DNA of 64,000 bases, taken from positions 29,491 through 93,490 of the forward strand of contig JAISXO010000034.1 in NCBI GenBank assembly GCA_031270475.1. The letters are read 5' to 3'. This DNA comes from Puniceicoccales bacterium. GTDB taxonomy: Bacteria; Verrucomicrobiota; Verrucomicrobiia; Opitutales; LL51. Below are positions 885 through 57,607 of the stretch, one piece after another (the stretch's first letter is position 1; each line of letters begins with the position of its first letter). The notes beneath the pieces were generated by a model. It was given only the letters and a program-made list of their open reading frames with translations, did not search any database and was not told where the DNA came from. The position numbers were made by a program, and so were the translations under genes.

Positions 885-2687
885 ATGAATTCACTGGAGA
901 GGATCCGCAATTTTTGCATCATCGCCCATATTGACCACGGCAAAACGACCTTATCCGATCGTTTACTAGAATATACCAATACGGTTCAGAAGCGGAAGAT
1001 GCAGGATCAGCTATTGGATTCGATGGATTTGGAGCGGGAGCGAGGGATTACGATCAAGTGTCATCCGGTTTCGATGAAATTGAAACGCCCCAATGGGGAA
1101 GAATTTTTACTCAATTTGATTGATACGCCGGGCCACGTTGATTTTTCCTACGAGGTTTCGCGGAGCATAGCCGCCTGCGAAGGCGCTTTATTATTGATCG
1201 ACGCCTCTCAGGGGGTTGAGGCGCAAACGGTAGCCAACGCGAATTTAGCCATCGGTCAAAGAATGGTCATTATTCCGGTACTCAACAAAATCGATTTACA
1301 GAGTGCTCAACCGGACGTGGTACTGACGCAGTTGGAGGACATTTTAGCCATACCGCGGGAGGAGGCGATTCGAGCGAGTGCGAAATCGGGTATAGGCACT
1401 GAAGAAATTTTAGAAGCGGTAGTGGAGCGCATTCCGGAGCCGCGTTGGGCGGATTATTCCCAGACTCGCTGTCTCGTTTTCGATTCCGTTTTCGATGCTT
1501 ACCAGGGGGTAATTTGTTATATCCGCGTATTTTCTGGTACGGTTAAGACTGGCGATGATCTACTCCTCATGGGGACGGGGCAGCGAATGCAGATTAAGGA
1601 TGTGGGTATTTTTTCGCCGCAGATGGTTTCGATGGGGGTACTTGGAGCGGGACAGGTTGGGTTTATCGTTACGAATATCAAAAATGTGGCGGAGATCAAA
1701 ATCGGCGATACGATTACCCACTTTGCCGATCCGGCGAAGGAGATGCTACCGGGGTACAAAGAAGTGCGTCCCATGGTTTTCAGTGGCATTTACCCCATCG
1801 ATACGCCGGATTACGAAAAATTAAAGGCGGCACTGGCACGTTTACAGCTGAATGATTCGGCCCTTGTGTACCAATCGGAGAACTCGACGGCATTAGGCTT
1901 TGGTTTTCGCTGTGGATTTTTGGGGTTACTGCACATGGAAATTGTACAGGAGCGCATTCGCCGGGAGTACGATTTGGATGTCATTTCGACCTATCCGAGT
2001 GTGGTATACAAGGTGATGAAGACCGATGGCGTCGAAATACTCATCGATAACCCGCTCCATTTGCCGGAGCCGTCGTCCATCGATTACATTCAGGAGCCGA
2101 TGATCCGCGCAATGATTCATATTCCCAACGACTCCATTGGCGACATGTTGATGCTCATTTCCGAGAAGCGGGGGACATGTTTGCGGACGGATACGGTAGA
2201 TCAGAGTCGGGTTATGCTTTGCTGCGAATTGCCATTGAATGAAGTTTTAGTGGATTTCAACGATCGCCTGAAGAGTATTACGAAGGGGTACGGCTCGATG
2301 GACTACGAAGTGGACGAATATAGGACAGCGAATTTGGTGCGAATGGATTTGTTGGTAAACGGAGAGGCGATCGATGCCTTTTCATCGATTGTCCACCGGG
2401 ACAAAGCGGTTGCGAAAGGGCGGGAATTATGTCAAAAATTGAAAGAAATTTTACCTCGCCAGCTCTTTGCCATAGCGATTCAAGCGGCGATTGGGAGTAC
2501 GATTATTGCTCGGGAGACGTTGAGTGCGTTGCGGAAGGATGTGACGGCGAAGTGTTACGGCGGGGATATTACGCGAAAGCGCAAACTCCTCGAGAAGCAG
2601 AAGGAGGGGAAGAAAAAGATGAAGCAGATCGGTAAAATTGCCATCCCACAGGACGCCTTTATTAAAATTTTAAAATCATCGACCTAG
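885..2687 (+). CDS. lepA: elongation factor 4 (LepA)
   Basis: 600 aa. N-terminal GTPase motif IIAHIDHGKTTLSDRLL plus DTPGHVDF and NKIDL. Length and C-terminal region are typical of LepA. Confidence 0.95.
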   Translation: MNSLERIRNFCIIAHIDHGKTTLSDRLLEYTNTVQKRKMQDQLLDSMDLERERGITIKCHPVSMKLKRPNGEEFLLNLIDTPGHVDFSYEVSRSIAACEGALLLIDASQGVEAQTVANANLAIGQRMVIIPVLNKIDLQSAQPDVVLTQLEDILAIPREEAIRASAKSGIGTEEILEAVVERIPEPRWADYSQTRCLVFDSVFDAYQGVICYIRVFSGTVKTGDDLLLMGTGQRMQIKDVGIFSPQMVSMGVLGAGQVGFIVTNIKNVAEIKIGDTITHFADPAKEMLPGYKEVRPMVFSGIYPIDTPDYEKLKAALARLQLNDSALVYQSENSTALGFGFRCGFLGLLHMEIVQERIRREYDLDVISTYPSVVYKVMKTDGVEILIDNPLHLPEPSSIDYIQEPMIRAMIHIPNDSIGDMLMLISEKRGTCLRTDTVDQSRVMLCCELPLNEVLVDFNDRLKSITKGYGSMDYEVDEYRTANLVRMDLLVNGEAIDAFSSIVHRDKAVAKGRELCQKLKEILPRQLFAIAIQAAIGSTIIARETLSALRKDVTAKCYGGDITRKRKLLEKQKEGKKKMKQIGKIAIPQDAFIKILKSST

Positions 2688-2695
2688 GCTCAAAA

Positions 2696-2725
2696 GGCCA
2701 GAAATAAGTTTTCTAGCCTTTTTTT
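2696..2725. terminator. hairpin plus T-run between convergent lepA and the hydrolase gene
   Basis: GGCCAGAAA-taagt-TTTCTAGCC (one mismatch), preceded by AAAA and followed by TTTTTTT. It could terminate both strands. Confidence 0.55.
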
Positions 2726-2741
2726 ATCGTTATTTTTGGTG

Positions 2742-4385
2742 TTATTCTCCTAGGATTTCTTTCCCGCAGTCGGTGTCTTTGAATTTTACTTTTCTTTTTT
2801 CGCCATTTTCGAATTGTAAGAAAATTAACTCCGGCGAATATTCTTTTACTTTTTTATCCTGATTAAAAATCTTTAAATTCTGGGTTCCTTCGTTGGGTTT
2901 ACCTTTTCCGATGGACAGCATATCGCTGAGCATACTTTCAAAGGCTTGCGATTGTTCAGGGGGAATATTTTCATTCGTTTTTATATTTTGTATGCGATGG
3001 GGACTATGGGCTGCTCCCGCGTAGGCGAAGGTCCGCCAATTGTCAAATCCGATCTCCTTCAACAGCCAAGCGACGGTTCCATTTTGGGTTGTTGGAGGCG
3101 TGTTATAGTCTTTTAGGCCGACGAATAAAAACACAGGAATTTTGAGTTGATCGAAGATTTTTTTCAATTTCTTTCGGCTCATCCCACTCGTAATGGAAAG
3201 AGGATGGGCGTATTTATAAACGTATTTTGCTTCTTTGCCTTGGAATTCTTTAATGGGCATGGAGCAATCAATATTTTTGGGCACATCGTTCGGCGCAGCG
3301 TGTTGAAAGGCGAAGTGATTAAATGAATCAAAATACATGGGGAGTTGACCGATTGAAGAACTTCCCCAGGATTCGTTGATATAGGGCGATGCTAATCCTA
3401 CGCCGAGTTTGAAATTTTCGTTAAGGAAAGCGTATTCATTGGCGATCATTTGGGTCATGATATGGCCGCCGTTGCTATGGCCGATGAGAGCCATTCTCGT
3501 TCCATCGATATAATCCAATTTTTTAATTTCCTCGATTTGGTCTTTAATTTGTTCCCTAATATTTCCGTTGCCATTTTTCCCGCGTATGGTGATAGTAGCG
3601 AAAGCGATATCGTTTTGCACGAGGTAGCGGGCTAGCGGTTGGAGGCCGTATGTAAAATTATATGGTGTCCCCAAGAAATCATCGAAGGAAATGTCGAGTT
3701 GATTGGGATCGGAGTAACGGCAATTATCTTTAATTCCGACGCTGCCTCCATGTAACCAAAAAATGCAGGGATAGGGAGGTGTTGCGCGATCGGATTTCGG
3801 AGCATACACATAGCACGTAATATTTTCATCATCCGTTGCCACTGTTACTTCTTCGAGTTTTATGGAATCGATATTTTTCAAATTAAATTTACTATAAACT
3901 TCCTGAAAAGCTTTCCATGGGTCTGATGTATTTAAAAAATTGTTTAATTCCTTCGTAAGGGTTTCAATTTGATTTTGGAAGTTCTGGATCCTATCATATG
4001 TAGCGGTTATGCCTTTGGAGAGTATTTTCAATCGTTTTTGTTCTTTTTCTTTATCTTCCGGTGCAATGGATTCCGACTCCAGTTCTTGGATGAGGGTATT
4101 CTGTTGGGCTTGGCGGTCAGCATAATCTTTTTTCGCGCGTTTCAGTGCGATCCATGGACTACAATATCTTCCCAGATTTTCAGTGCGATTTTCAATCAAT
4201 TGGCTAAATTTGGTCGCTTGAGCCAATGTTTGACATGCTTTTACCGCATCAACTTCGCTATCATCGCTGCAAATTTCAGAAAGTGATTGTTTTGGGGGAG
4301 GATCGCCGTATAGCTTTAGTGCACTGAATTGCAAAGCATTCAATAATAATAAACTTGTAACACATGTTTTAAATTTAATATTCAT
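2742..4385 (-). CDS. secreted coiled-coil / alpha-beta hydrolase (esterase-lipase like), paralog A
   Basis: 547 aa. Hydrophobic N-terminal signal-like MNIKFKTCVTSLLLLNALQFSALKLYG. WLHGG oxyanion-type motif and GHSNGG nucleophile elbow (GxSxG). C-terminal AHSPH. Confidence 0.7.
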   Translation of the reverse strand: MNIKFKTCVTSLLLLNALQFSALKLYGDPPPKQSLSEICSDDSEVDAVKACQTLAQATKFSQLIENRTENLGRYCSPWIALKRAKKDYADRQAQQNTLIQELESESIAPEDKEKEQKRLKILSKGITATYDRIQNFQNQIETLTKELNNFLNTSDPWKAFQEVYSKFNLKNIDSIKLEEVTVATDDENITCYVYAPKSDRATPPYPCIFWLHGGSVGIKDNCRYSDPNQLDISFDDFLGTPYNFTYGLQPLARYLVQNDIAFATITIRGKNGNGNIREQIKDQIEEIKKLDYIDGTRMALIGHSNGGHIMTQMIANEYAFLNENFKLGVGLASPYINESWGSSSIGQLPMYFDSFNHFAFQHAAPNDVPKNIDCSMPIKEFQGKEAKYVYKYAHPLSITSGMSRKKLKKIFDQLKIPVFLFVGLKDYNTPPTTQNGTVAWLLKEIGFDNWRTFAYAGAAHSPHRIQNIKTNENIPPEQSQAFESMLSDMLSIGKGKPNEGTQNLKIFNQDKKVKEYSPELIFLQFENGEKRKVKFKDTDCGKEILGE

Positions 4386-7404: not shown

Positions 7405-7432
7405 TTGTTTTTTTGTGGAGTTAAAAAAGCGC

Positions 7433-7492
7433 TTGACAAGTTTTGGAAGGGCGTTGATGCTAGGCAGTAGAGGGTGGGAGCAAGCGGCACGT
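7433..7492 (+). promoter_or_regulatory. promoter-like module with conserved downstream motif, copy M1
   Basis: aaaaaagcgcTTGACA (7433-7438), 17 nt, GATGCT, 5 nt, GTAGAGGGTGGGAGCAAGCGGCACGT (7467-7492). Lies 150 nt upstream of the MFS gene. Confidence 0.55.
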
Positions 7493-7642
7493 CTAAGGTC
7501 GGGGACATGAGAAATAGGGAAAAGAAACTTTACGCATTTATCTTTCTGTGTTTATCGGTTTAGAAAAAAATCAAAAAAAAGTATAATATAGCATTGGCTT
7601 TATAAACTTCTAATTAAAAAAACGTTAACATGTTTAACAGTC

Positions 7643-16552: not shown

Positions 16553-17056
16553 ATAAATTTCTAAAAGAACCTAAAAATATTGTCTGCATTTTTTATTAGT
16601 TCCTCTTTTTTCTCAAAGGTAAAAACATCGAAGAATAAAAGGTTATACATTTGTTCCCTAATGGTTTCTTTTCGATTTTACGGAAAAGGTTTGTTTCTCT
16701 CGATATCCAAATATTCCCGAAACCCACTAGCGAACATAGCAATCATCCTCTAAAACATTTCTAATTTCATTTTTCATTTTAGGGGAGATATTTGGCGACT
16801 CATAAATTTCTAAAAGGACCTAAAAGCATTGTCTGTATTTTTTATTAGTTCCTCTTTTTTCTCAAAGGTAAAAACATCGAAGAATAAAAGGTTATACATT
16901 TGTTCCCTAATGGTTTCTTTTTGATTTTACGGAAAAGGTTTGTTTCCCTCGATATCCAAATATTCCCGAAACCCACTAGCGAACATAGCAATCATCCTCT
17001 AAAACATTTCTAATTTCATTTTTCATTTTAGGGAAAATATTTGGCGACTCATAAAA
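16553..17056. repeat. tandem duplication, 2 x ~249 bp
   Basis: 16553-16801 and 16802-~17056 are near-identical by eye, with a few substitutions or indels. Each unit contains the 3' end of a minus-strand open frame (...PKMKNEIRNVLEDDCYVR*) plus ~170 bp downstream. Confidence 0.9.
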
Positions 17057-17263
17057 TTCTTCTAGTTGGTACATAGCGTTTGCTCTTTCCTTAGGCGGGA
17101 GAACATAGTTTTTTACATTTCCCAGGCATTTGCGACACTTGTTGTCTGCCGCTTGAATTACGAAGTTGTTTAACTTAAATCTTGCTGTTACATGAACTTT
17201 TCTAGATCCAAAGGCTTTCCTTCCTAAAACTTCCCCAGTATCCCCATCCAGAGCAGATGTCCT
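16976..17263 (-). pseudogene. start-less 95-codon open frame (gene remnant?)
   Basis: The frame is open from the TAA at 17264-17266 to the TAG at 16976-16978: RTSALDGDTGEVLGRKAF...NKCRKCLGNVKNYVLPPKERANAMYQLEEFYESPNIFPKMKNEIRNVLEDDCYVR. The first ATG is at codon 64. No family recognised. Confidence 0.3.
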
Positions 17264-25821: not shown

Positions 25822-25964
25822 AATGGTGGTAGTATAAATTAACGGAAAAAGGGAAGCGATAAAATTTTTTTCGAGTTAATCATTGATTCGGTTAGCGAGA
25901 GCGCAGTTTGCGTCATTTCGTTGTGCATGAGCAAGAAAAATTATAATTCGAGAATAAAAAGCAC

Positions 25965-26023
25965 TTGACAGAGTAAAAAATCGTCCAAGGCTAGGGAGCA
26001 GGGGAGAGAGTAAGCGAAGCGTC
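25965..26023 (+). promoter_or_regulatory. promoter-like module, degenerate orphan copy
   Basis: aataaaaagcaCTTGACA (25965-25970), 17 nt, AGGCTA, 5 nt, CAGGGGAGAGAGTAAGCGAAGCGTC. It points at the 3' end of the convergent rpoN. Confidence 0.4.
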
Positions 26024-26081
26024 TGGAGGTGGTCTTGATTGTAAAGTCATCGTCAATTTTCGTTAATTATTTATTTATTTT

Positions 26082-27458
26082 TTATATATATCGCCGCACG
26101 TTTGCCGACGGAATCGCAAGGAACGTACGATATTTAGTCACGGTTCGTCGAGCAATCCAAATGCCTTCATTTTGAAGTATTTGGGCGATTTTTTCATCGC
26201 TGAGCGGTTTGTTTTTGTTTTCATTTTTGATAATATTTTTAATACTCTCTCGGAGCGTGTTTTGTGCGATGAGGGAGCCATGATTACCGTGGGAAAAAAA
26301 GAAATCCAGCGGAATAATTCGATGTGGAATTTGAACATATTTATTTTTGACAGCCCGGGAAAGTGTTGTGGAGTGGATTTCGAGGCATTCCGCCACTTGT
26401 TTTTGACTCTGCGGACGAAGAAAATCACTGCCATTTTCTAGGAAGTCGCTTTGAAATTTCAAAATATATTCGGCAATTTTTTGTAAAGTTTCCCGGCGCT
26501 TGTGCAGCATCTTAACCAAAAATTGGGCTTGTTGTTTGTTCTCGGTAAAAAAATTACGGTCTTCGCGCTTTGATGAATGGGTAAACATCCTTAGGTAAAG
26601 GTCATTTATACGAATTTCCGGTGCACCGCGAACTTCGCAGCTCCAATGGCCGTCAATTTTTTGGAAAATAATTTCTGGAACAATCGCCGGATTGGCGTTG
26701 GGCATAATCGTTTTGAGCGGTGCAAAATTTAGCAATTTCAAGGGCACCAAAAGTGTACGCAATTCGGATGCCGTCTTACATAATTTTCTCCGCAATTTAG
26801 CGAATCGGCGATGCTCGAGGTCATCGAAATAGTGTGCAACGAGGTCATGGAGCGGCGTATTTTCCGGAATTTGCAACCGAAAGCAATCCTGCAAATCATG
26901 GGCACCAATCCCCTTCGGCGAAAGCGATCGCAATATCGCATAGGCTGTTTCAAAAACATTTTGCCGCGCATCGTCGGTCCGCGCATCGCAATTTTCCTCG
27001 CCATCCGGCCAAGAAATCCCGTACTGCTGAGCCGCATCCTCTGGCAAAAATCCGCGATCATCGAGGCTATTAATTAGCGTCGTCAGTGCCGTTTTTGTCG
27101 CCTCGTCCAAATCGGGAACCTGGGCGAGGAGGTAATCCTCAGGTGAATCTTCGGCACTAATATTTTCTAAAAAATTTGGATTGCTTTCTTCGTTATTTGG
27201 TATATCGCTCGTGCGCGCGCGCGCGCTCATATTAATAGTACTTTCCTTACTTGCACTCGCTGGAAAGCCGTAGGGAGCCGTGTCGGCGATGTCGAGAAGG
27301 GGGTTGCGCTGAATTTCCGCAGCAATGAGCCGGTAAAGTTCCTCGGTCGGCAATTGCAAAATGTCCAGAGAACGGAGCATGGACGGAGATAGTCGTTGGC
27401 TTTGAATTTGTAGGCGATCGTTCCTTAGGTCCACGGCGTAAGCATGGAGAGATACCAA
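26082..27458 (-). CDS. rpoN: RNA polymerase sigma-54 factor
   Basis: 458 aa. Gln/Leu-rich region I, HTH region, and RpoN box ARRTVTKYR near the C-terminus. Confidence 0.95.
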   Translation of the reverse strand: MVSLHAYAVDLRNDRLQIQSQRLSPSMLRSLDILQLPTEELYRLIAAEIQRNPLLDIADTAPYGFPASASKESTINMSARARTSDIPNNEESNPNFLENISAEDSPEDYLLAQVPDLDEATKTALTTLINSLDDRGFLPEDAAQQYGISWPDGEENCDARTDDARQNVFETAYAILRSLSPKGIGAHDLQDCFRLQIPENTPLHDLVAHYFDDLEHRRFAKLRRKLCKTASELRTLLVPLKLLNFAPLKTIMPNANPAIVPEIIFQKIDGHWSCEVRGAPEIRINDLYLRMFTHSSKREDRNFFTENKQQAQFLVKMLHKRRETLQKIAEYILKFQSDFLENGSDFLRPQSQKQVAECLEIHSTTLSRAVKNKYVQIPHRIIPLDFFFSHGNHGSLIAQNTLRESIKNIIKNENKNKPLSDEKIAQILQNEGIWIARRTVTKYRTFLAIPSANVRRYI

Positions 27459-27708
27459 CTTTTTTCAAGAAATGAAGTTAATTTTTGAGGGAATCAATCT
27501 GTGCCAAAAGAATTTCCGCAGCAATGAGCCGGTAAAGTTTCTCGGTCGGCAATTGCAAAATGTCCAGAGAACGGAGCATGGACGGAGATAGTCGTTGGCT
27601 TTGAATTTGTAGGCGATCGTTTCTTAGGTCCACGGCGTAAGCATGGAGAGATACCAACTTTTTTCAAGAAATGAAGTTAATTTTTGAGGGAATCAATCTG
27701 TACCAAAA
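27311..27708. repeat. tandem duplication, 2 x 199 bp, covering the rpoN 5' end and upstream region
   Basis: 27311-27509 and 27510-27708 differ at only a few positions by eye. The distal copy holds an rpoN start codon at 27657 and 49 identical or near-identical codons. Confidence 0.9.
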
Positions 27709-35010: not shown

Positions 35011-36234
35011 TTATCGATGGGAATTTTTCTTAAAAATATGGATAATTTTGTCCATGGCAGTGACCAGTTGCTCAATTTCTTCCAATGTGTTGTAAGGCGC
35101 CAGAGATAGACGAACCGTTCCGCCAATGCCGAGCGCATGCATCAACGGTTGCGCACAGTGATGCCCGGCTCGTACCGCAATTCCCTCGCTATCAAATATA
35201 CTGGCCACATCGTGGGGATGCGCGGATCGATGAATGAATGAAATAATTCCCGTTCGCTGATTGTTCGGCTTGAGAACCTCAATGGACGAATTTTGTCCCA
35301 AAATTTCCAAAACATGCCCCTTGAGTCCCTCGCCATATCTTTGTGCCTCAATCCAATCTATCTTCCCGAGAAATCGAATCGCTTCCCGTAGCCCCGTAAC
35401 TCCAACAACATTCGGCGTACCTGCTTCAAAACGAGTAGGAATCTCGCGGAATAAGGCCGGTTGATCGAAGGCTACGCGATCGACAATCCCTCCGCCTAAG
35501 TGGTACGGCTGAAAATGCTCCAGGTGTTCGGCGCGGCCATAGAGAAATCCAATTCCCATCGGCCCAAAAGCCTTGTGCGCGGAAGTTGCAAAGAAATCAC
35601 ACTCCATCTCCCGTACATCAATCGGTCCGTGTCCCAATGATTGCGCGCCATCGACGATGCAAAGCGCTCCAACCCTATGCGCCATCTGGGCAATTTTTTT
35701 TATCGGATTAATCGTCCCTAAAACGTTTCCAATGTGCGCAATGGAAACAATCCGCGTGCGCTCCGAAAGCTTGTGCCCAAAATCATTCCCGTCGAAATCG
35801 CCCGCTTCCGTCATCGATACAATGCGAATCGTCGCCCTAAGCCGCTGCCATGGAAGAATATTAGCGTGGTGTTCCTGGACAAATAAAATAATTTCATCTT
35901 CCGTTGTGAGAGATGCGAATTGGGATGCTAGAAAATTGATGCCTTCCGTCGTCCCCGAATTGAGAATGATTTCCCGTGGCTCGCGAGCGTTGATCCAATG
36001 GGCGATTTCTCGGCGTGTAGACTCGTAAATTTCCTCGGCCTTCGCACTGAGATCATATATCCCGCGGTGGACGTTAGCGTTAGTTGTGCGCAGATGGTAG
36101 GCCATTGCTCCGATGACACGCTCCGGTAATTGAGTTGTGGCCGCGTTATCGAAGTAAATCAGAGGCTTTTCAAAACGATTGTGACCACTTAAGATCGGGA
36201 ATTCCTGGCGAAAGGCGTGAACATCGAAACTCAT
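35011..36234 (-). CDS. sufS: cysteine desulfurase (SufS/CsdA class V aminotransferase)
   Basis: 407 aa. HHANILPWQ, SAHKAFGPMGIG (PLP lysine) and RAGHHCAQP motifs. Confidence 0.9.
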   Translation of the reverse strand: MSFDVHAFRQEFPILSGHNRFEKPLIYFDNAATTQLPERVIGAMAYHLRTTNANVHRGIYDLSAKAEEIYESTRREIAHWINAREPREIILNSGTTEGINFLASQFASLTTEDEIILFVQEHHANILPWQRLRATIRIVSMTEAGDFDGNDFGHKLSERTRIVSIAHIGNVLGTINPIKKIAQMAHRVGALCIVDGAQSLGHGPIDVREMECDFFATSAHKAFGPMGIGFLYGRAEHLEHFQPYHLGGGIVDRVAFDQPALFREIPTRFEAGTPNVVGVTGLREAIRFLGKIDWIEAQRYGEGLKGHVLEILGQNSSIEVLKPNNQRTGIISFIHRSAHPHDVASIFDSEGIAVRAGHHCAQPLMHALGIGGTVRLSLAPYNTLEEIEQLVTAMDKIIHIFKKNSHR

Positions 36235-36366
36235 AGCGAGATTTGTCTAGCCCTTTAGAATTTTTTACCGTTGTCAAGCTTTTTTATTTTTTAGTGTTAT
36301 TCCCGTGGATGAATTCCCATCCCGAAGATATGATAAATAACAGTTCAGTGTGTGGCGGAAAATTTT

Positions 36367-36426
36367 ACGCGCCGCTTGCTCCCACCCTCTACCTTCCAGT
36401 CTTGAAAGAATTTCAGGACCTATCAA
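36367..36426 (-). promoter_or_regulatory. promoter-like module with conserved motif (faces sufS)
   Basis: The minus strand reads CTTGATA (36426-36421), 17 nt, AAGACT, 5 nt, GTAGAGGGTGGGAGCAAGCGGCGCGT. Lies 133 nt upstream of the sufS ATG. Confidence 0.55.
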
Positions 36427-36478
36427 GTCGTTTCTGAAAAGATAATTTTCAAAAATAAAAATATTTTGTATTTTCTTC

Positions 36479-36506
36479 TTGACATAATTCATAAAATCGC
36501 GACAAT
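36479..36506 (+). promoter_or_regulatory. candidate promoter of the pilin-like gene
   Basis: TTGACA (36479-36484), 16 nt, GACAAT (36501-36506). Divergent from the module at 36367-36426. Confidence 0.45.
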
Positions 36507-36628
36507 CGCTTCATGATTGATTTGCAAAGCAACAAAGCGTAAAAAGTAAAAGTAAATCTTTTACGTTAGTTGAGATTGTTTTTACTATTGCCATCATCGG
36601 CATTTTACTAGCCATTCTTCCGCCGGCA

Positions 36629-37330
36629 ATGAGTGCCATCAAACTCGGCGCACAAAAGGCAAAGGATCAATCCAACTTGCAAAAAATTGCCGAAGCTTGG
36701 CGCGGAGCCGTGATCGATCGCGGCTGGATAATCGATGGTGAAAGTGGCGGAAATATAAAATCTACCGATTTTGCAGAGCAATTGGCCGGACGAGATAATG
36801 GGAAAAGTATCTCGGATATGATTTTGAATGATCCCTATGTTTGGATTTCTCCAGGCGATAAATATGCCTCAAGAATTCAAAAAGAATCACTTTGTATTTT
36901 AGTGGATGATTCTGTCCGATTCGCTGACGCTTTTATGGAAGTTAATGGCAATTTTATGGTCTCGGGAAAATACCTACTTAGTTATTGCATCGTATGTAGG
37001 TTGCCCGGGAATGTTCCTCTCGATACGACGCCGCTCGGTTTTACGCGTGGACTTAACAAAAATGGAAAGTGGGATGAAAAAGCTAGCCTATATGGCTCGA
37101 AGGGCGGCTATGTCGTTTTCTGCGATGGTCACGTCGCGTGGTTTGACGGCAGTAAGCCAGCACGATTCTTGAAATGGGGTGGGTCGGGTGTTACACGACT
37201 GATATTTGTGAAGCAGTTCCTGGTGGCACTTGGATTACATGTGCCCACGATTATGATAGAATTCAAGCAGCTTACTGGGGCGAAGATGCTAAAGCCATCC
37301 TCAGTTCCGCCGGTATCGGTTGATGATTGA
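36629..37330 (+). CDS. prepilin-type / H-X9-DG family protein (N-terminus apparently frameshifted)
   Basis: C-terminal DGHVAWFDG fits H-X9-DG. In-frame upstream sequence (36560-36628) encodes SFTLVEIVFTIAIIGILLAILPPA but has no in-frame start. The ATG at 36513 is in another frame and stops at 36540. Confidence 0.6.
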   Translation: MSAIKLGAQKAKDQSNLQKIAEAWRGAVIDRGWIIDGESGGNIKSTDFAEQLAGRDNGKSISDMILNDPYVWISPGDKYASRIQKESLCILVDDSVRFADAFMEVNGNFMVSGKYLLSYCIVCRLPGNVPLDTTPLGFTRGLNKNGKWDEKASLYGSKGGYVVFCDGHVAWFDGSKPARFLKWGGSGVTRLIFVKQFLVALGLHVPTIMIEFKQLTGAKMLKPSSVPPVSVDD

Positions 37331-37335
37331 AAATT

Positions 37336-37613
37336 TTCACGTGCCGCTTGCTCCCACCCTTGAAAGAATTTCAGGGCCTGTCAAGTCGTTTCTGAAAAGA
37401 TAATTTTCAAAAATAAAAATATTTTGTATTTTCTTTTTGACATAATTCATAAAATCGCGACAATCACTTTATGGTCGATTTGCAACGCAACAAAGCGTAA
37501 GGAGCAAAAGTAAATCTTTTACATTGATTGGAATCGTTTTTATTATTGCCATCACCGGCATTTTACATGCCGCTTGCTCCCACCCTTGAAAGAATTTCAG
37601 TGCCTGTCAAGTG
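37336..37613. repeat. second copy of the divergent-promoter / pilin 5' segment, flanked by two short-form modules
   Basis: 37336-37567 matches 36365-36608. Short modules at 37339-37384 and 37565-37610 (minus) read TTGACA, 17 nt, AAGGGTGGGAGCAAGCGGCA(C/T)GT, which is a 13-nt deletion relative to the long form. Confidence 0.85.
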
Positions 37614-37854
37614 ATTTTTTTGGAATTATTAATACTAGCTTCGTCATTTGGATTTCTAGTATCGGTGAAAGTTGAAATAAATCGCCAGGAATACCTTGAA
37701 AAACTGATATCTACTTTCCCTCTTTGAAAAAACCGGACCTCTGCCAAGTGATTTTTTGAAAATAAATCAATAAAAAATAACAAAACATTGATAGATTGCG
37801 TTTCCAGTTTCCAAAAAGTAATTCCCGGAATTTTTATTTATACTTTGACAATAA

Positions 37855-39054
37855 TTGCCGAAAAATACGTTTATTCCCATGGACGCGCTCGTCAAACTCG
37901 TCGACGGTATCGATACAATTGTTGGACAGGAGTCCCTATCGGAACGCCTATCGCAAAAAAAAATCCTGAAAGTGAAACTTGGTGTCGATCCAACTCGCCC
38001 CGATTTGACCTTTGGCCATATGGTCGTTTTCAATAAATTGCGCCAGTTTCAGGATCTCGGCCACGAAGCAATTTTGCTGATCGGCGACCATACTGCTACC
38101 ATTGGCGATCCTTCCGGTCGTTCTTCGACGCGCCCGGTGTTGACTACCCAAGAGGTCGACCAAAATGCCAAAACTTACCTCGAGCAGGCCTTCAAAATTA
38201 TCGATCCCGAGAGGACGACGATTCGGCGCAATAGCGAGTGGTTTCGAAGGATGACGTTCGACGATATGCTCATTATTGCCCGTAAAATGACGGTTGCGCG
38301 GATGCTTGAGCGGGACGATTTTGCGAAACGCTACCGCGAAAATGAGCCCATTTCCATTGTCGAGTTTTTATATCCTTTGATGCAGGGGTATGATTCGGTC
38401 ATGCTCGAAGCCGACGTCGAGCTTGGCGGAACGGATCAATTTTTCAATTTATTGGTTGGCCGCGCGCTCCAAAGGGATTATGGCCAGCGGGAGCAGATTG
38501 TCATCACGATGCCGCTCATCGTCGGTCTTGATGGGAAGCGTAAAATGTCAAAAAGTTACGATAATTACATTTCATTTAACCATTCTTCAAAGGATATGTT
38601 TGGGCGGATCATGTCGATTCCGGACGAAGTGATGTGGACCTATTTCAAGTTATTATTGGAGTATTCTGACGGGGCGATCGAGGCGTTGAAGGGGGGGCAT
38701 CCCATGGATGCGAAAAAATTTTTGGCTCGATCGTTGGTGGCGCGATTTTACGGTCCAGAAGTCGGGGAGCAAGAGTTAGCGGATTTTGAGGCGGTATTTT
38801 CGCATGGAGAAATCCCGGAAGCGATGCCGGAATTTTCGTTACAAGCGATGGCAAAGGATCCGGTTACTTTAGCCGACGCGATGGCATATTCGCAATTTTT
38901 TGAAAGCAATCGAGAGATTCGCCGACTCATTGAGCAAGGAGCTGTCAAAGTTAATGGGAAGAGTGAAAAGAATTTTAAGTTTCCTTTACGATCCGACCGC
39001 TGTCCCCATGTCATTCAGTCTGGCAAGCGCATATTTTTAAAAGTTATTCCGTAG
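37855..39054 (+). CDS. tyrS: tyrosyl-tRNA synthetase
   Basis: 399 aa. Class I motifs (TFGHMV HIGH-like, KMSKS). C-terminal S4-like domain (IRRLIEQGAVKVNG). Alternative start at 37879. Confidence 0.9.
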   Translation: MPKNTFIPMDALVKLVDGIDTIVGQESLSERLSQKKILKVKLGVDPTRPDLTFGHMVVFNKLRQFQDLGHEAILLIGDHTATIGDPSGRSSTRPVLTTQEVDQNAKTYLEQAFKIIDPERTTIRRNSEWFRRMTFDDMLIIARKMTVARMLERDDFAKRYRENEPISIVEFLYPLMQGYDSVMLEADVELGGTDQFFNLLVGRALQRDYGQREQIVITMPLIVGLDGKRKMSKSYDNYISFNHSSKDMFGRIMSIPDEVMWTYFKLLLEYSDGAIEALKGGHPMDAKKFLARSLVARFYGPEVGEQELADFEAVFSHGEIPEAMPEFSLQAMAKDPVTLADAMAYSQFFESNREIRRLIEQGAVKVNGKSEKNFKFPLRSDRCPHVIQSGKRIFLKVIP

Positions 39055-39505
39055 AAAATAATTAGTGCGTTTATGGCTAATTATTTTTTGCATTATCGCA
39101 GTCGAAAAATTATTTTTTTGTAACGGCGATATATCTTTAAATAGATTTTGAGGCGGTATTGCACACAGAGAAATTGAAAAAAAACAAAAAGGATTTTAAG
39201 ATTCCTTTATAATTCGACCGCTGTCCCCATATTATTCAGTCCGGCAAGCGCATATTTTTAAAAGTTATTCCGTAGGAAATAATTAATGTGTTTACGGTTA
39301 ATTATTTTTTGCATTATCGCAATCGAAAAATTATTTTTTTGTAACGGCGATATATCTTTAAATAGATTTTGAGGCGGTATTGCACACAGAGAAATTGAAA
39401 AAAACAAAAAGAATTTTAAGATCCTTTTACGATTCGACCGCTGTCCCCATGTCATTCGGTCTGGCAAGCGCATACTTTTAAAAGTTATTCCGTAGGAAAA
39501 TGATT
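38972..39505. repeat. tandem repeat, ~2.4 x ~221 bp, reiterating the tyrS 3' end
   Basis: ATTTTAAG...CGACCGCTGTCCCCAT...GGCAAGCGCATA..TTTTAAAAGTTATTCCGTAG recurs at 38972, 39193 and 39413. The units also carry AGATTTTGAGGCGGTATT, which matches tyrS at ~38785. Confidence 0.85.
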
Positions 39506-39545
39506 AATTTATTTACAATTGAATCTTTTTTTTTACACTAATGCA

Positions 39546-47043: not shown

Positions 47044-47668
47044 ATTTTTTTTGTATTACGAATTGTTGATGTTTTTTTTATTCTGTTCGGGGTGTACACT
47101 TTTCAAGACGACTCCCGATCGGACGCGTCTATTTGACATTGGATTTCGGGGGACGCAATCGGCGATGTCTTCGGTAGACAGTGCAAAAATTTGTCTTATT
47201 TTGGGGAGTTTTCCGGATTATCTCGATGGATCACCGATCATCACGAAGATTGGTGAGCATGAATTGAAAAATAATCCGCGCTATCGTTGGGCCAAACCGC
47301 TTTCGGAAACGATTCTTTACATTGTAAAACGCAGTATTTTGCAAAGTTTTTCGAAAGTTTACGTCTATGAATTCCCCAAAGATACCATGGATAAGATTGA
47401 TTTTACGCTATGTTTAGACGTCGATGGGCTGGAGATTTGCGAAGTGACGCAGCGGATTATCTTTAAAGGGACGTGGACTTTTTTAGATGCGAAGCAACGG
47501 AATATAACCCATGCTCCATTTGAATTTTGCGAGTCATTTGATGATTTTTCGGATCGTTACGGAGAAATAGTGGCCAAGGTGGAGCAGGTTATCCATCATT
47601 TAGGCGACGCGATTGTAAAGGAAATGGATCTTATTTTTCTAAAAAGAATAACGGGAAATAATCCCTAG
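47033..47668 (+). CDS. ABC-transport auxiliary lipoprotein (PqiC/YmbA-like)
   Basis: MKTRFFLYYELLMFFLFCSGC lipobox. Its position directly after an MCE gene is typical. Confidence 0.6.
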   Translation: MKTRFFLYYELLMFFLFCSGCTLFKTTPDRTRLFDIGFRGTQSAMSSVDSAKICLILGSFPDYLDGSPIITKIGEHELKNNPRYRWAKPLSETILYIVKRSILQSFSKVYVYEFPKDTMDKIDFTLCLDVDGLEICEVTQRIIFKGTWTFLDAKQRNITHAPFEFCESFDDFSDRYGEIVAKVEQVIHHLGDAIVKEMDLIFLKRITGNNP

Positions 47669-47958
47669 CAAGCCGTTTGGGATGCGTTTAAAAGAAGAAG
47701 AGAATATTAGTGGAGAGAGGCGTCGCATTTCTTTTTTTGATATGAATGATAGAAATAAGAAGAAATAGTGGCCAAGGAGGAGCAGGTTATCCATCATTTA
47801 GGCGACGCGATTGTAAAGGAAATGGATCTTATTTTTCTAAAAAAAATAACGGGAAATAATCCCTAGCAAGCCGTTTTGGATGCGTTTAAAAGAAGAAAAG
47901 AATATTAGGGGAGAGGCGTCGCATTTCTTTTTTTGATATGAATGATGGAAATAAGAAG
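47563..47958. repeat. tandem duplication, 2 x 198 bp, spanning both 3' ends of a convergent gene pair
   Basis: 47563-47760 and 47761-47958 are near-identical. The junction reads gatAGAAATAagaAGAAATAgtgg, with AGAAATA microhomology. Confidence 0.9.
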
Positions 47959-49224
47959 ACTGATTGCGGAACCTAAAAGAAGAATACGCGTCAAAATAAA
48001 ATATGAACCAAAACTCTTTTGAGAATAACTGAACGCCGATGGCGCAATGGCGGCAAAAAGAGAGACGATCAGTGCCACGCTAGACATGATGTGCCCAAGG
48101 TGTTTCCGGCCAAAAAGTTTGGGCCAAGGCGCCGCAGAGGCGATTCCGTAAAGCGACCAGTTAAATCCACACAAGCAAATAAAAGGCCATAATCCCCACG
48201 ATTGGCAAACGTTTTCTAAAAAAAACATCAGAGCCGCATTGGTCGAAAAAATTGCGAGTAAACAGCAGCGAATTGAAGATCGATCCTGAAGAATACTGAA
48301 TAGAACTCCCGCAATCGCGCTGACTACGGCGGCAAATGGAAAAATGTTCAGTGGATTGGCAGTGCAGGCGTGGGCCTCGCGAAAAATATCGACGATGTGA
48401 ATCTCTAAACCCGTTGAAGTAAAAGTCGACGTCGAAACCGCTAGAACAAAAATCCAAAAATCAAAGGTACCAAGTGCCTGACGCAACGTGTAGTCGCGCG
48501 CAACAATTGGATGATCACTGTTGTTTTTTAATCCATCTCGATTGCTGCCAACCGACTGAGGATTGTCGCGACATAGGGCCCAAATAAAAGGAAGCATTAC
48601 CAAAAGAATAATGAGGCCTTGCGCCATCCAAGCCGTGAGGTAGCCCAATTCTTCGATTAAACGGTGAATAATCTTCGGCGCACAACCAAAGGTAATGGAA
48701 ACAAAAATACCGGAAATGCCAATCATGGTGCAACTTCTTTTATCGTACCACTGGAGAAGCATCATGCGACTGGCGAGCGGGATGAGGTTTTGTCCGCATA
48801 GTTTTAGTAAAAAAAGTCCCGGGAAAAGTATGCAAGTAACGGCGACAAAGTGCGAGGTACAGCCTTCCACCGAGGCGATGGCAGAAGCGATGTGGCCCAT
48901 GAAAAGCAGTGTTAATCCCAGCATTAATGTGGCATAGGTAACGGCTCGACGAATTCCGATGCGGTCAAAAAGTGTGCCTAAAAGTGGCAGTAACAGGGCA
49001 CTGAGCAGGGTCGCGAAGAAAAAAATATTACTGAAATGATTGCGAGAAATGTGTAAATTTTGAATGAGTTCTTCCGTAAAGGGGCAAAGGCCGACGCTAT
49101 GGCCAGGAATACTAATCATTCGCGCGCAAAGAGAGGTAAAAAAGATGACCAAACCGTAAAAAAATGGTACACGCTTTGGAGCAAAGGGAAAATTTGGGGC
49201 AAAAATTTTCGATTTTTTCGACAT
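47905..49224 (-). CDS. MFS transporter
   Basis: 439 aa, ~12 predicted hydrophobic helices, and an MFS motif-A-like LGTLFDRIGIRR. Confidence 0.75.
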   Translation of the reverse strand: MSKKSKIFAPNFPFAPKRVPFFYGLVIFFTSLCARMISIPGHSVGLCPFTEELIQNLHISRNHFSNIFFFATLLSALLLPLLGTLFDRIGIRRAVTYATLMLGLTLLFMGHIASAIASVEGCTSHFVAVTCILFPGLFLLKLCGQNLIPLASRMMLLQWYDKRSCTMIGISGIFVSITFGCAPKIIHRLIEELGYLTAWMAQGLIILLVMLPFIWALCRDNPQSVGSNRDGLKNNSDHPIVARDYTLRQALGTFDFWIFVLAVSTSTFTSTGLEIHIVDIFREAHACTANPLNIFPFAAVVSAIAGVLFSILQDRSSIRCCLLAIFSTNAALMFFLENVCQSWGLWPFICLCGFNWSLYGIASAAPWPKLFGRKHLGHIMSSVALIVSLFAAIAPSAFSYSQKSFGSYFILTRILLLGSAISLLISIIHIKKRNATPLP

Positions 49225-55928: not shown

Positions 55929-56007
55929 AGATTCCTCCTTTACCCATATTGGGAAGTTTTGAAGAAATTCAAGTTTTTGAAAAAACTTATTGGCGAAGGG
56001 ATTTTTT

Positions 56008-56067
56008 ACATGCCGCTTGCTCCCACCCTCTACTCTCCAGCCTTGCCGCACTTTTTATTGTTGTCAA
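56008..56067 (-). promoter_or_regulatory. promoter-like module with conserved motif (faces recD2)
   Basis: The minus strand reads aaaaaaaCTTGACA (56067-56062), 17 nt, AAGGCT, 5 nt, GTAGAGGGTGGGAGCAAGCGGCATGTAAAAAA. Confidence 0.55.
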
Positions 56068-56096
56068 GTTTTTTTAATATTTTTTTAAGTGATGAC

Positions 56097-57311: not shown

Positions 57312-57504
57312 GAAAAATTTATAAATTTCCCGAAAAAACCATCCATCCAAAGGGAGGGTCCGAGAGGCTCTCCCAATTTTTGTTTGTACTAAATTATTTT
57401 GAAATTTTATTATTTTTTTAAGATATTCTCGCTGATTTATTTCAATTTCCTCCGGTACTGGAAACTTAAATGACAAGGCTACCATTAATATTTAAAAAAA
57501 CAAC

Positions 57505-57564
57505 TTGACAGGTATTGAAATTCTTCCAAGTTTGAAGGGTAGAGGGTAGGAGCAAGCGGCATGT
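57505..57564 (+). promoter_or_regulatory. promoter-like module with conserved motif, orphan copy
   Basis: aaaaaaacaaCTTGACA (57505-57510), 17 nt, AAGTTT, 5 nt, GTAGAGGGTAGGAGCAAGCGGCATGTGAAAAA. The next gene (mnmE) is convergent. Confidence 0.5.
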
Positions 57565-57607
57565 GAAAAATAGAGCGTAAATTTTTTAGAATTAATTAAT
57601 AGTTTAC

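Follow-up and report, generated by a model that had tools for sequence, protein, structure and literature searches.

Repeat-driven phase variation is regarded as a hallmark of host-adapted pathogens (Neisseria, Haemophilus, Campylobacter, Mycoplasma). The opa genes of Neisseria carry pentanucleotide CTCTT repeats in the region coding for the signal peptide, and a poly-G tract in the signal-peptide region of pilC turns translation of a pilus-related protein on and off. In the pilE/pilS system of the same genus, a Sma/Cla repeat lies downstream of the pil loci and a small-RNA promoter associated with a G-quadruplex (G4) lies upstream of pilE. A single N. gonorrhoeae strain has 11 phase-variable opa genes, and the 2025 phase-variation review that describes them makes no mention of Verrucomicrobia or symbionts (PMC11868660). 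In H. influenzae biogroup aegyptius, 12-15 copies of the octanucleotide GCATCATC are found upstream of hmw1A and hmw2A (PMC3309571). In this study, we describe a pilin-like gene, with an ATG at 36513, in a 64,000-nt stretch of DNA from a Puniceicoccales bacterium (assembly GCA_031270475.1, contig JAISXO010000034.1, positions 29,491 to 93,490 of the forward strand); we refer to the whole stretch as the window and number it from its first letter. The gene is a member of an extensive family that encodes prepilin-type surface proteins, similar to type IV pilins or pseudopilins, in uncultured Puniceicoccales. We consider it likely that this family, in Puniceicoccales of the lower-termite gut, is turned on and off by repeats at the 5' end of each gene, and that the window copy is off, with a degenerate repeat and a second frameshift, and is probably dying. 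Our search of the full-text literature returned no report of repeat-driven phase variation in Verrucomicrobia or insect-gut symbionts, nor of this family.

The pilin frame of the window gene is open from 36521 (FAKQQSVKSKSKSFTLVEIVFTIAIIGILLAILPPAMSAIK...), is closed upstream by a TGA at 36518, and encodes KSFTLVEIVFTIAIIGILLAILPPAMSAIK... without an ATG, GTG or TTG until an internal ATG at 36629. The ATG at 36513 is in a different frame from the pilin body and reads MIDLQSNKA up to a TAA at 36540. A sequence-only reading of the locus had already recorded both a prepilin leader that is in frame with its body yet has no start codon and an ATG that is out of frame, and both observations held when the region was read again. 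The same reading placed the shift in the A-rich run at 36538-36548, and here we differ. With a stop at 36518 closing the pilin frame and another at 36540 ending the short open reading frame (ORF), the offset must lie within 36521-36539; moreover, the A-run is 5 A long and is absent from a partial second copy of the gene further downstream (copy B). Between the promoter-anchored ATG and a lysine-rich leader segment lies a degenerate remnant of two octanucleotide units, identical at 6 of 8 positions, and it is this remnant, not the A-run, that sets the frame offset of the gene. One unit or four units would place the ATG in frame, whereas two, as in the window, place it out of frame. When one unit is removed or two are added, the reading becomes ATG ATT GAT TTG CAA AGC GTA AAA AGT AAA AGT AAA TCT TTT ACG, encoding MIDLQSVKSKSKS directly ahead of FTLVE, which is a normal, positively charged prepilin leader. 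The leader of the window gene is 47 nt long and in phase 2, exactly as in L014:3748, which has a perfect repeat of n=2, and in the decayed genes L029 and L051.

Our protein search returned 167 relatives, and all named matches were either 'MAG: Puniceicoccales bacterium' or JGI metagenomes. We took 79 loci from species-representative genomes, about 50 of them from Puniceicoccales bins (Pcl387, Cc175, Ncb351, Gsp477, Im510 and similar); bins prefixed Gsp477 and Ncb351 come from the lower termites Glyptotermes and Neotermes cubanus (PMC11707648). The related genomes each hold at least 13-17 paralogs, often in tandem arrays. In nearly every paralog (~50 loci), a perfect tandem repeat lies between the ATG and the lysine-rich leader, with 2-21 copies of a unit that is 8 nt long (rarely 5 or 7 nt) and whose length is in no case divisible by three. 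Among the 8-nt units are ACAAAACG, ACAAAGCG, CAGAAATG, GAAGTGCG/A, ATCGACAA, GCGATACG, GGGATACA (14 copies), GGCATACA, AATCGAGC and GACAACAA; the 7-nt units are GGAAACA and GAACACA, and the 5-nt unit CAACG is present in ~21 copies in the promoter-anchored gene L013. Many homolog leaders show periodicities of eight residues (TKRQSDKA, QKCRNAEM, MATWQHGN, DKTTRRQD, RRYGDTAI), the very pattern produced when an 8-nt DNA repeat is read through all three frames. The leader segment behind the repeat, GTAAAAAGTAAAA(G/A)TAAATCT across the family, encodes VKSK(S/N)KS in the right frame and presents a TAA in each of the other two (at 36540 and 36547 in the window gene), so that ribosomes arriving off phase would stop at once. 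An Im510_bin18 subclade (L013, L020, L030, L066) is distinguished by the CAACG unit, by Ala at position -1 and by the lack of the intergenic module described below, and several Im510_bin18 contigs end within the repeat tract.

The reading frame tracks the number of repeat units. In genes with near-identical flanks, copy number alone differs, and the frame follows it: ACAAAACG repeats with the same flanks occur with n=3, 4, 5 and 7, of which n=4 (L016) and n=7 (L002) are in frame but n=5 (L002) is not, and for ACAAAGCG repeats n=1 (L028) and n=4 (L004) are in frame while n=2 (L014), n=8 (L004) and n=9 (L021) are out. The paralogs occupy all three phases. Among promoter-anchored genes, 17 of 41 are in frame and 24 of 41 are out, which is near the one-third expected if phase is not fixed. 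A full-length body was found in 15 of 16 in-frame genes and in 16 of the 19 out-of-frame genes that could be judged, a count that includes the window gene with its frameshifted tail. Because frame follows repeat number and most out-of-frame bodies are intact, we infer slipped-strand phase variation. The sequence-only reading had offered slippage-dependent expression as one option; for the family this survives in spirit, as a change in the number of 8-nt units at the DNA level, but not as slippage in the A-run. Outside the family proper, L045, from an uncultured Verrucomicrobia genome (38% identity), has no 5' repeat of this kind, and a scan of JGI metagenomes gave only relatives of at most 33% identity and no such repeats.

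The position of the start codon lends support to the idea that a frame switch at this site would act as a gate. Over 30 paralogs the promoter consensus is TTGACA-16-AACAAT-6-ATG, and every anchored gene has its ATG 27-29 nt (mostly 28) downstream of TTGACA; in the window gene the distances are 28 nt from the -35 hexamer and 7 nt from the -10. Because the A of the ATG falls at the usual sigma-70 transcription start, the mRNAs of the pilin family would be leaderless, with a 5'-terminal AUG as the sole usable start. Only 6 nt separate the -10 from the ATG, too few to accommodate a Shine-Dalgarno sequence. With a leaderless AUG as the only start, a frame switch directly behind it would be an effective gate. 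The 28-nt spacing recurs at tyrS, downstream of the pilin gene, and is kept in a second species (L028:3393-3430), suggesting that tyrS mRNA is probably leaderless in both. Leaderless starts as a genome-wide rule were considered and rejected, as tyrS alone has the 28-nt spacing among the long ORFs of the window. No intrinsic terminators were found in 36150-37950.

Taken together, these features suggest a model for the family. Each cassette would consist of a sigma-70-type promoter (TTGACA-16-AACAAT) with an ATG at the expected transcription start, followed by a non-triplet repeat, a lysine-rich leader with stops in both wrong frames and then Ser or Ala ahead of FTLxE. Replication slippage would add or remove repeat units, and each gain or loss would shift the pilin body into or out of the frame of the ATG, giving every paralog an independent on/off switch. 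This switching mechanism is inferred from the anatomy of the genes and their comparison, and several observations weigh against it. The differences in repeat number are between paralogs and species, not within one population, and repeat lengths in short-read metagenome assemblies are prone to mis-assembly. An ATG or GTG inside some units (CAGAAATG, GAAGTGCG) could allow internal initiation and blunt the switch. The transcription start at the ATG is placed by spacing alone and, with no Gly at position -1, processing by the prepilin peptidase is assumed. The two imperfect units of the window copy make a poor switch, and the GT insertion in its tail could in principle be an assembly error. Among database proteins we found no allelic variants, as cluster members or pairs at least 93% identical are the same gene with different start calls.

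Several features mark the encoded protein as pilin-like. Its N-terminus scores 26.5 bits against the Pfam N_methyl profile PF07963 (cut-off 21.2), and the Glu at +5 of the mature protein is present (FTLVE). Position -1 is Ser in 67 of 85 homologs, including the window gene, Ala in 18 and Gly in none; Ser or Ala in place of Gly is unusual for class III signal peptides. The AlphaFold model (m81c33dfef1f2) of P0003, the closest relative, has a predicted local distance difference test (pLDDT) score of 88.4 and a predicted TM-score (pTM) of 0.81, and its unstructured leader, helix (24-74) and beta-rich head give it a pilin-like 'lollipop' shape; a Foldseek search with this model found no PDB neighbour at E<1. 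The label of H-X9-DG protein attached to the gene by the sequence-only reading is not supported at threshold. The window protein scores 13.6 bits against TIGR04294 (H-X9-DG), below the cut-off of 19, with a Gly at the position of the H-X9-DG His (...YGSKGGYVVFCDG), and none of 16 family members matched at E<=0.01; the family matches TIGR02596 and the DG part of TIGR04294 weakly.

In the databases the window protein is LBR92_03140, annotated as hypothetical with its start called at the internal Met. Internal-Met starts are called for all three of the genome's own matches (LBR92_03140, LBR92_04020 and LBR92_01645), and the 120 homologs listed include 19 with an internal-Met start, ~10 with a GTG in the helix and 19 with an upstream alternative start, which in several, P0012, P0016 and P0021 among them, is the TTG of the -35 box. 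Artefactual N-termini are common among the database proteins (P0012, P0016, P0021, P0050, P0064, P0072, P0096, P0102 and others), P0096 and P0102 being paralogs from the same genome. This serves as a warning for annotation, in which starts are wrongly placed at an internal Met, at a GTG in the helix or at the -35 TTG, and copies that are off phase are labelled 'hypothetical protein'.

The window copy carries a second lesion, at 37190-37191, that had been missed in the sequence-only reading. Homologs read ...KWxxSGYTSDIRxAVP..., whereas the window protein reads ...KWGGSG and then VTRLIFVK; after ...FLKWGGSG relatives continue YT(S/N)DIRxAVPxSxWITCGN.... The displaced C-terminus includes the near-invariant Cys, and the ancestral stop, TGA at 37321, lies just 5' of the next module copy (B), as in intact paralogs. 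A long, perfect, fast-mutating tract was looked for in the window copy and what was found was two imperfect units, where relatives have 3-21 perfect ones; as the two are alike at only 6 of 8 positions, slippage should be rare. Because its switch is degenerate and off phase and its C-terminus is broken, the window copy is most likely a locked-off family member decaying into a pseudogene, and for this copy the pseudogene option of the sequence-only reading is probably correct. In L028 (Cc175_bin33; 2345-3140) the syntenic gene is in frame, with n=1, but a stop codon stands in place of the conserved Trp of DGKWDEK. This stop is a second, independent inactivation at the tyrS-adjacent pilin locus, which seems to be decaying in two lineages.

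Downstream of the window gene, part of the locus recurs. The sequence-only reading described a recurring unit of ~240 bp that is cut off at ATTTTAC, and our analysis bears this out: a direct repeat of 228 nt joins 36386-36613 to 37344-37571 at 88% identity, and copy B breaks off at the junction of GGCATTTTAC and ATGCCGCTTGCTCCC. Copy B has the same two-frame layout as copy A, MVDLQRNKA-TAA followed by VRSKSKSFTLIGIVFIIAITGIL in another frame; in it AAGGAGC replaces the A-run and Gly replaces the Glu at +5 (FTLIG). ATTTTAC is found both in the pilin codons GGC ATT TTA C of copy A (36602-36608; codons 15-17) and in the sequence that usually flanks the module on its left (AAAATTTTAC, 36362-36368). 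For this reason, the simplest account of the truncated unit is that it would be the remnant of a tandem paralog whose body was lost by deletion through the ATTTTAC microhomology. Such a deletion was one of two explanations suggested earlier, and synteny backs it. TyrS homologs (88-90% identity) lie directly 3' of the pilin genes in L028, which has a single pilin gene upstream of tyrS, and in L002 (Pcl387_bin18; TyrS 90%), which has two complete tandem paralogs and then two modules in that position, and a SufS homolog (71% identity) is divergent from the pilin gene in L058. The order in the window is sufS, module A, promoter A, pilin A, module B, promoter B, stub, module C, a half module and tyrS, which, judged by gene order, is the layout of L002 minus the body of the second paralog. 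The other explanation, a recent tandem duplication through the module, is not supported, the copies being only 88% identical. None of the relatives' loci keeps the truncated unit.

Other explanations of the frame offset account for less of this evidence. The window gene could be an ordinary pilin gene whose start was broken by a random frameshift, with no regulation involved. The second, unrelated frameshift and the presence of only two degenerate units in the window copy agree with this, as do the nonsense codon of the syntenic L028 gene and the decay of two further relatives, L051 and L010:3671. Yet the offset between the frames corresponds exactly to a single repeat unit, many paralogs with intact bodies share the layout, and a non-triplet 5' repeat is present across the family. 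While plain pseudogenization is compatible with repeat gating as far as the window copy is concerned, it leaves the family unexplained, and we regard it as improbable. Less credible by far is an error in a homopolymer, raised as an option by the sequence-only reading, with the true gene having an in-frame start. The contig does come from a short-read metagenome assembly and there are A-rich runs near the start, but no homopolymer longer than 3 occurs in 36521-36539, and copy B, 88% identical, is in the same phase even with AAGGAGC in place of the A-run. The same 47-nt out-of-frame leader, moreover, is found in three genes of other genomes (L014, L029, L051), so we give this explanation almost no weight.

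Two further alternatives concern how the gene is expressed. That the short upstream ORF ends beside an A-rich stretch invites the idea that programmed ribosomal frameshifting or transcriptional slippage joins it to the pilin frame in every transcript. A -1 shift would then be needed within CAAAGCAACAAAGCG, which has no X XXY YYZ heptamer and no A/T run of 9 or more; the five-A run lies 3' of the stop and is missing from copy B, and with paralogs in all three phases one fixed signal cannot serve, making recoding as implausible as a sequencing error. Alternatively, the repeat may be an untranslated leader of variable length, with translation starting at a non-canonical codon or by re-initiation and the number of units gating nothing. 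The family is atypical, lacking Gly at -1, and units bearing ATG or GTG give internal starts in some paralogs. Against this, neither the window gene nor most paralogs have an in-frame ATG, GTG or TTG from the repeat to FTLxE, a Shine-Dalgarno sequence does not fit between the -10 and the ATG (6 nt), and the ATG is fixed at 28 nt from the -35; we find this explanation very unlikely, if slightly less remote than recoding. A more ambitious possibility builds on repeat gating and adds to it: that the family forms an undescribed surface-variation system, with dozens of leaderless prepilin cassettes, each repeat-gated and each bracketed by a ~75-nt module that has an active role. We hold this to be a minority possibility. 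The module would then supply an opposite-strand promoter with an invariant 25-nt initial transcribed block. It might produce antisense RNAs by which neighbouring cassettes are silenced or insulated; alternatively, it might form a recombination boundary for the duplication, deletion (as in the window stub) and relocation of cassettes, in which case the modules standing alone at sufS, recD2 and mnmE would have been left behind by cassette movement.

The module itself is a conserved, clade-wide intergenic sequence. Its 18-mer GCCGCTTGCTCCCACCCT occurs 6 times in the window, where 0.02 occurrences are expected by chance, and a search for its core GCTYGCTCCCACCCT that tolerated at most 2 mismatches gave 63 occurrences over the window plus the related loci; an nhmmer profile built from 57 related copies found 7 copies in the window. 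As a dispersed element of ~75 nt (core GCTYGCTCCCACCCTCTAC), promoter-like on its opposite strand, it has a density of about 1 copy per 10 kb in the window. At pilin genes the module starts 10-20 nt after the stop codon and ends ~50 nt before the next -35, so that every cassette is bracketed by direct repeats of it. It is also found at non-pilin loci, namely sufS, the recD2-like gene by tRNA-Leu, an MFS transporter gene and after mnmE, and it is missing from Im510_bin18 loci such as the sufS-pilin spacer of L058. Modules B and C share a deletion of 14 nt (CTACCTTCCAGTCT), corrected from the 13 nt reported earlier by repeat spacings of 972 and 958; the deletion takes out the -10-like hexamer together with the opening bases of the invariant block. 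In L019 (1700-2400), six tandem modules with alternating spacings of ~105 and ~131 nt are interleaved with a second conserved unit of ~55 nt (…GGTAGACCCAAAACCTC…GGCTGCATCAAGCCATTTTTAA); the array looks like small transcription units in series, and its folds are not significant.

On the opposite strand, the 57 copies align without gaps as CTTGACA-N17-AAGGCT-N6-TAGAGGGTGGGAGCRAGCGGCAYGT, and module A reads TTGATA-N17-AAGACT-N6-TAGAGGGTGGGAGC, pointing toward sufS. The invariant block starts 28-29 nt after the -35, which is the distance of the ATG in the pilin genes and tyrS, and the variable part lies between the -10-like hexamer and the invariant block. This arrangement fits a promoter with a conserved initial transcribed sequence, and transcription may start at GTAGAGGG; in arrays, the transcript would run antisense into the upstream paralog. 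The -10 of this putative promoter is weak and falls below the thresholds of the promoter scan. Of the divergent promoters proposed by the sequence-only reading, then, the pilin promoter is strong and conserved, while the promoter on the opposite strand of the module follows from geometry. At gathering thresholds, Rfam found only tRNA-Leu in the whole window, and at permissive thresholds a single chance-level match to RNAIII in 36200-37900. RNAalifold predicted no pairs in 59 module copies, six opposite-strand transcripts folded singly did no better than shuffled sequences (z from -1.6 to +1.4), and viral contigs contained no match to the module. Inspection by eye led us to reject a sigma-54 promoter, for which the spacing is unfit, a REP/RAYT element, as the hairpin arms show no covariation and GTAG is on the wrong side, and a G-quadruplex, with two G3 tracts only. 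An antisense or divergent promoter, a protein-binding site and a recombination site at cassette boundaries are three candidate roles for the module. The features of the locus are listed in Table 1.

Table 1. Positions of the pilin-like gene, the second-paralog stub, the promoters and the module copies in the window.
Feature	Position	Strand	Basis or remark
Start codon (promoter-anchored, probably leaderless) and off-phase reading MIDLQSNKA-TAA	36513..36542	+	length and phase as in L014:3748, L029, L051
Degenerate two-unit octanucleotide remnant, GCAAAGCA then ACAAAGCG	36524..36539	+	sequence reading and family comparison
Lysine-rich leader segment GTAAAAAGTAAAAGTAAATCT (VKSKSKS)	36539..36559	+	sequence reading; conserved across family
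Pilin-like body, from F+1 (FTLVEIVF...) to second frameshift	36560..37189	+	
Two-nucleotide GT insertion, frameshifting	37190..37191	+	protein alignment with homologs
Ancestral C-terminal coding region, now out of frame (YTTDICEAVPGGTWITCAHD...SSAGIG-TGA)	37192..37323	+	ORF 37174..37323
Pilin promoter A, TTGACA, 16 nt, GACAAT	36479..36506	+	promoter scan, 10 of 12
Pilin promoter B, TTGACA-16-GACAAT	37437..37464	+	promoter scan
Second-paralog stub: ATG, MVDLQRNKA-TAA, degenerate repeat (GCAACGCA then ACAAAGCG), first 16 mature codons (FTLIGIVFIIAITGIL)	37471..37566	+	
ATTTTAC, 7-nt microhomology at deletion junction	37560..37566	+	also in copy A pilin codons and module left flank
Promoter of tyrS, -35 TTGACA 37845-37850, ATG 37879	37845..37881	+	28-nt spacing as in pilin genes
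Module copy A, full length; core GCCGCTTGCTCCCACCCT at 36371-36388	36356..36433	+	nhmmer E=5e-18
Module copy B, 14-nt deletion	37328..37391	+	nhmmer E=4e-11
Module copy C, same 14-nt deletion as B	37558..37617	+	nhmmer E=7.5e-10
Degenerate right half of further module (…CTCTGCCAAGTGATTTTTT)	37713..37760	+	repeat family D5
Module between surE and MFS transporter gene	7427..7499	-	nhmmer
Diverged module copy	25959..26024	-	nhmmer E=2e-5
Module between tRNA-Leu and recD2-like helicase gene	55996..56073	+	nhmmer
Module ~50 nt after mnmE stop	57498..57572	-	nhmmer

The neighbours of the pilin gene in the 64 kb of the window are housekeeping genes (ispG, sufS, tyrS, ispD). Elsewhere, the window contains four tandem duplications (16553-17060, 27311-27708, 38966-39516 and 47563-47959) repeating every 198-249 nt in 2-2.5 copies that are 91-98% identical. 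One of the four starts inside the 3' end of tyrS; these duplications could be real, or could be strain variants concatenated by the metagenome assembler.

The result for the window is in itself modest, as one dead copy and a deletion scar are ordinary; it is the family behind them that is worth a short study. If each genome does hold a dozen or more independently switching pilin-like genes, this would point to strong, fluctuating selection on the cell surface, for which the termite or flagellate host, phages and competitors are candidate sources. It would also suggest a role that can be tested, as variable structures exposed on the cell surface, for prepilin-type proteins, which are abundant but of obscure function in the Planctomycetes-Verrucomicrobia-Chlamydiae (PVC) group.

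Among described systems, the nearest in protein type are the DUF1559, H-X9-DG and 'Verru_Chthon cassette' proteins of Verrucomicrobia and Planctomycetes, with which the family has in common an N-terminal methylation motif, a long hydrophobic helix and many paralogs per genome. Unlike the DUF1559 and H-X9-DG proteins, it scores below the TIGR04294 cut-off, has Ser or Ala at -1 and has a head with no significant PDB neighbour; distant Opitutaceae homologs (~28% identity, L053-L067) were left out of the comparison. The module can be likened, by analogy, to the elements of pilE/pilS: it is non-coding, it accompanies every pilin copy, its promoter-like site faces away from the downstream pilin gene and, like the G4 element of pilE, it has a G-rich block (GGGTGGG) at the predicted start. 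It differs in having two G3 tracts only, so that no canonical G-quadruplex is expected, and in occurring at non-pilin loci as well; silent promoterless cassettes, a part of the pilE/pilS system, are absent here.

The repeats have closer parallels, nearest in opa and more remote in pilC and the contingency loci of Haemophilus. Octanucleotide tandem repeats also stand beside the adhesin genes hmw1A and hmw2A, but the hmw repeats lie in the promoter region and tune transcription, whereas those described here lie inside the ORF and would act through the reading frame. With opa the family shares the organization of a surface-protein multigene family in which every copy has its own promoter and a non-triplet repeat in the leader sets the frame of the mature protein. 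Its units, however, are 8 nt long (also 5 or 7) and vary in sequence between paralogs, and, in contrast to the beta-barrel outer-membrane proteins encoded by opa, the products are prepilin-type, the mRNAs apparently leaderless and the host a verrucomicrobial gut symbiont; compared with opa, too, switching is here deduced from sequence. As in pilC, a repeat at the 5' end of the ORF precedes a pilus-related protein, yet where pilC has a homopolymer in one gene or a pair of genes, this family has an octanucleotide in dozens of paralogs.

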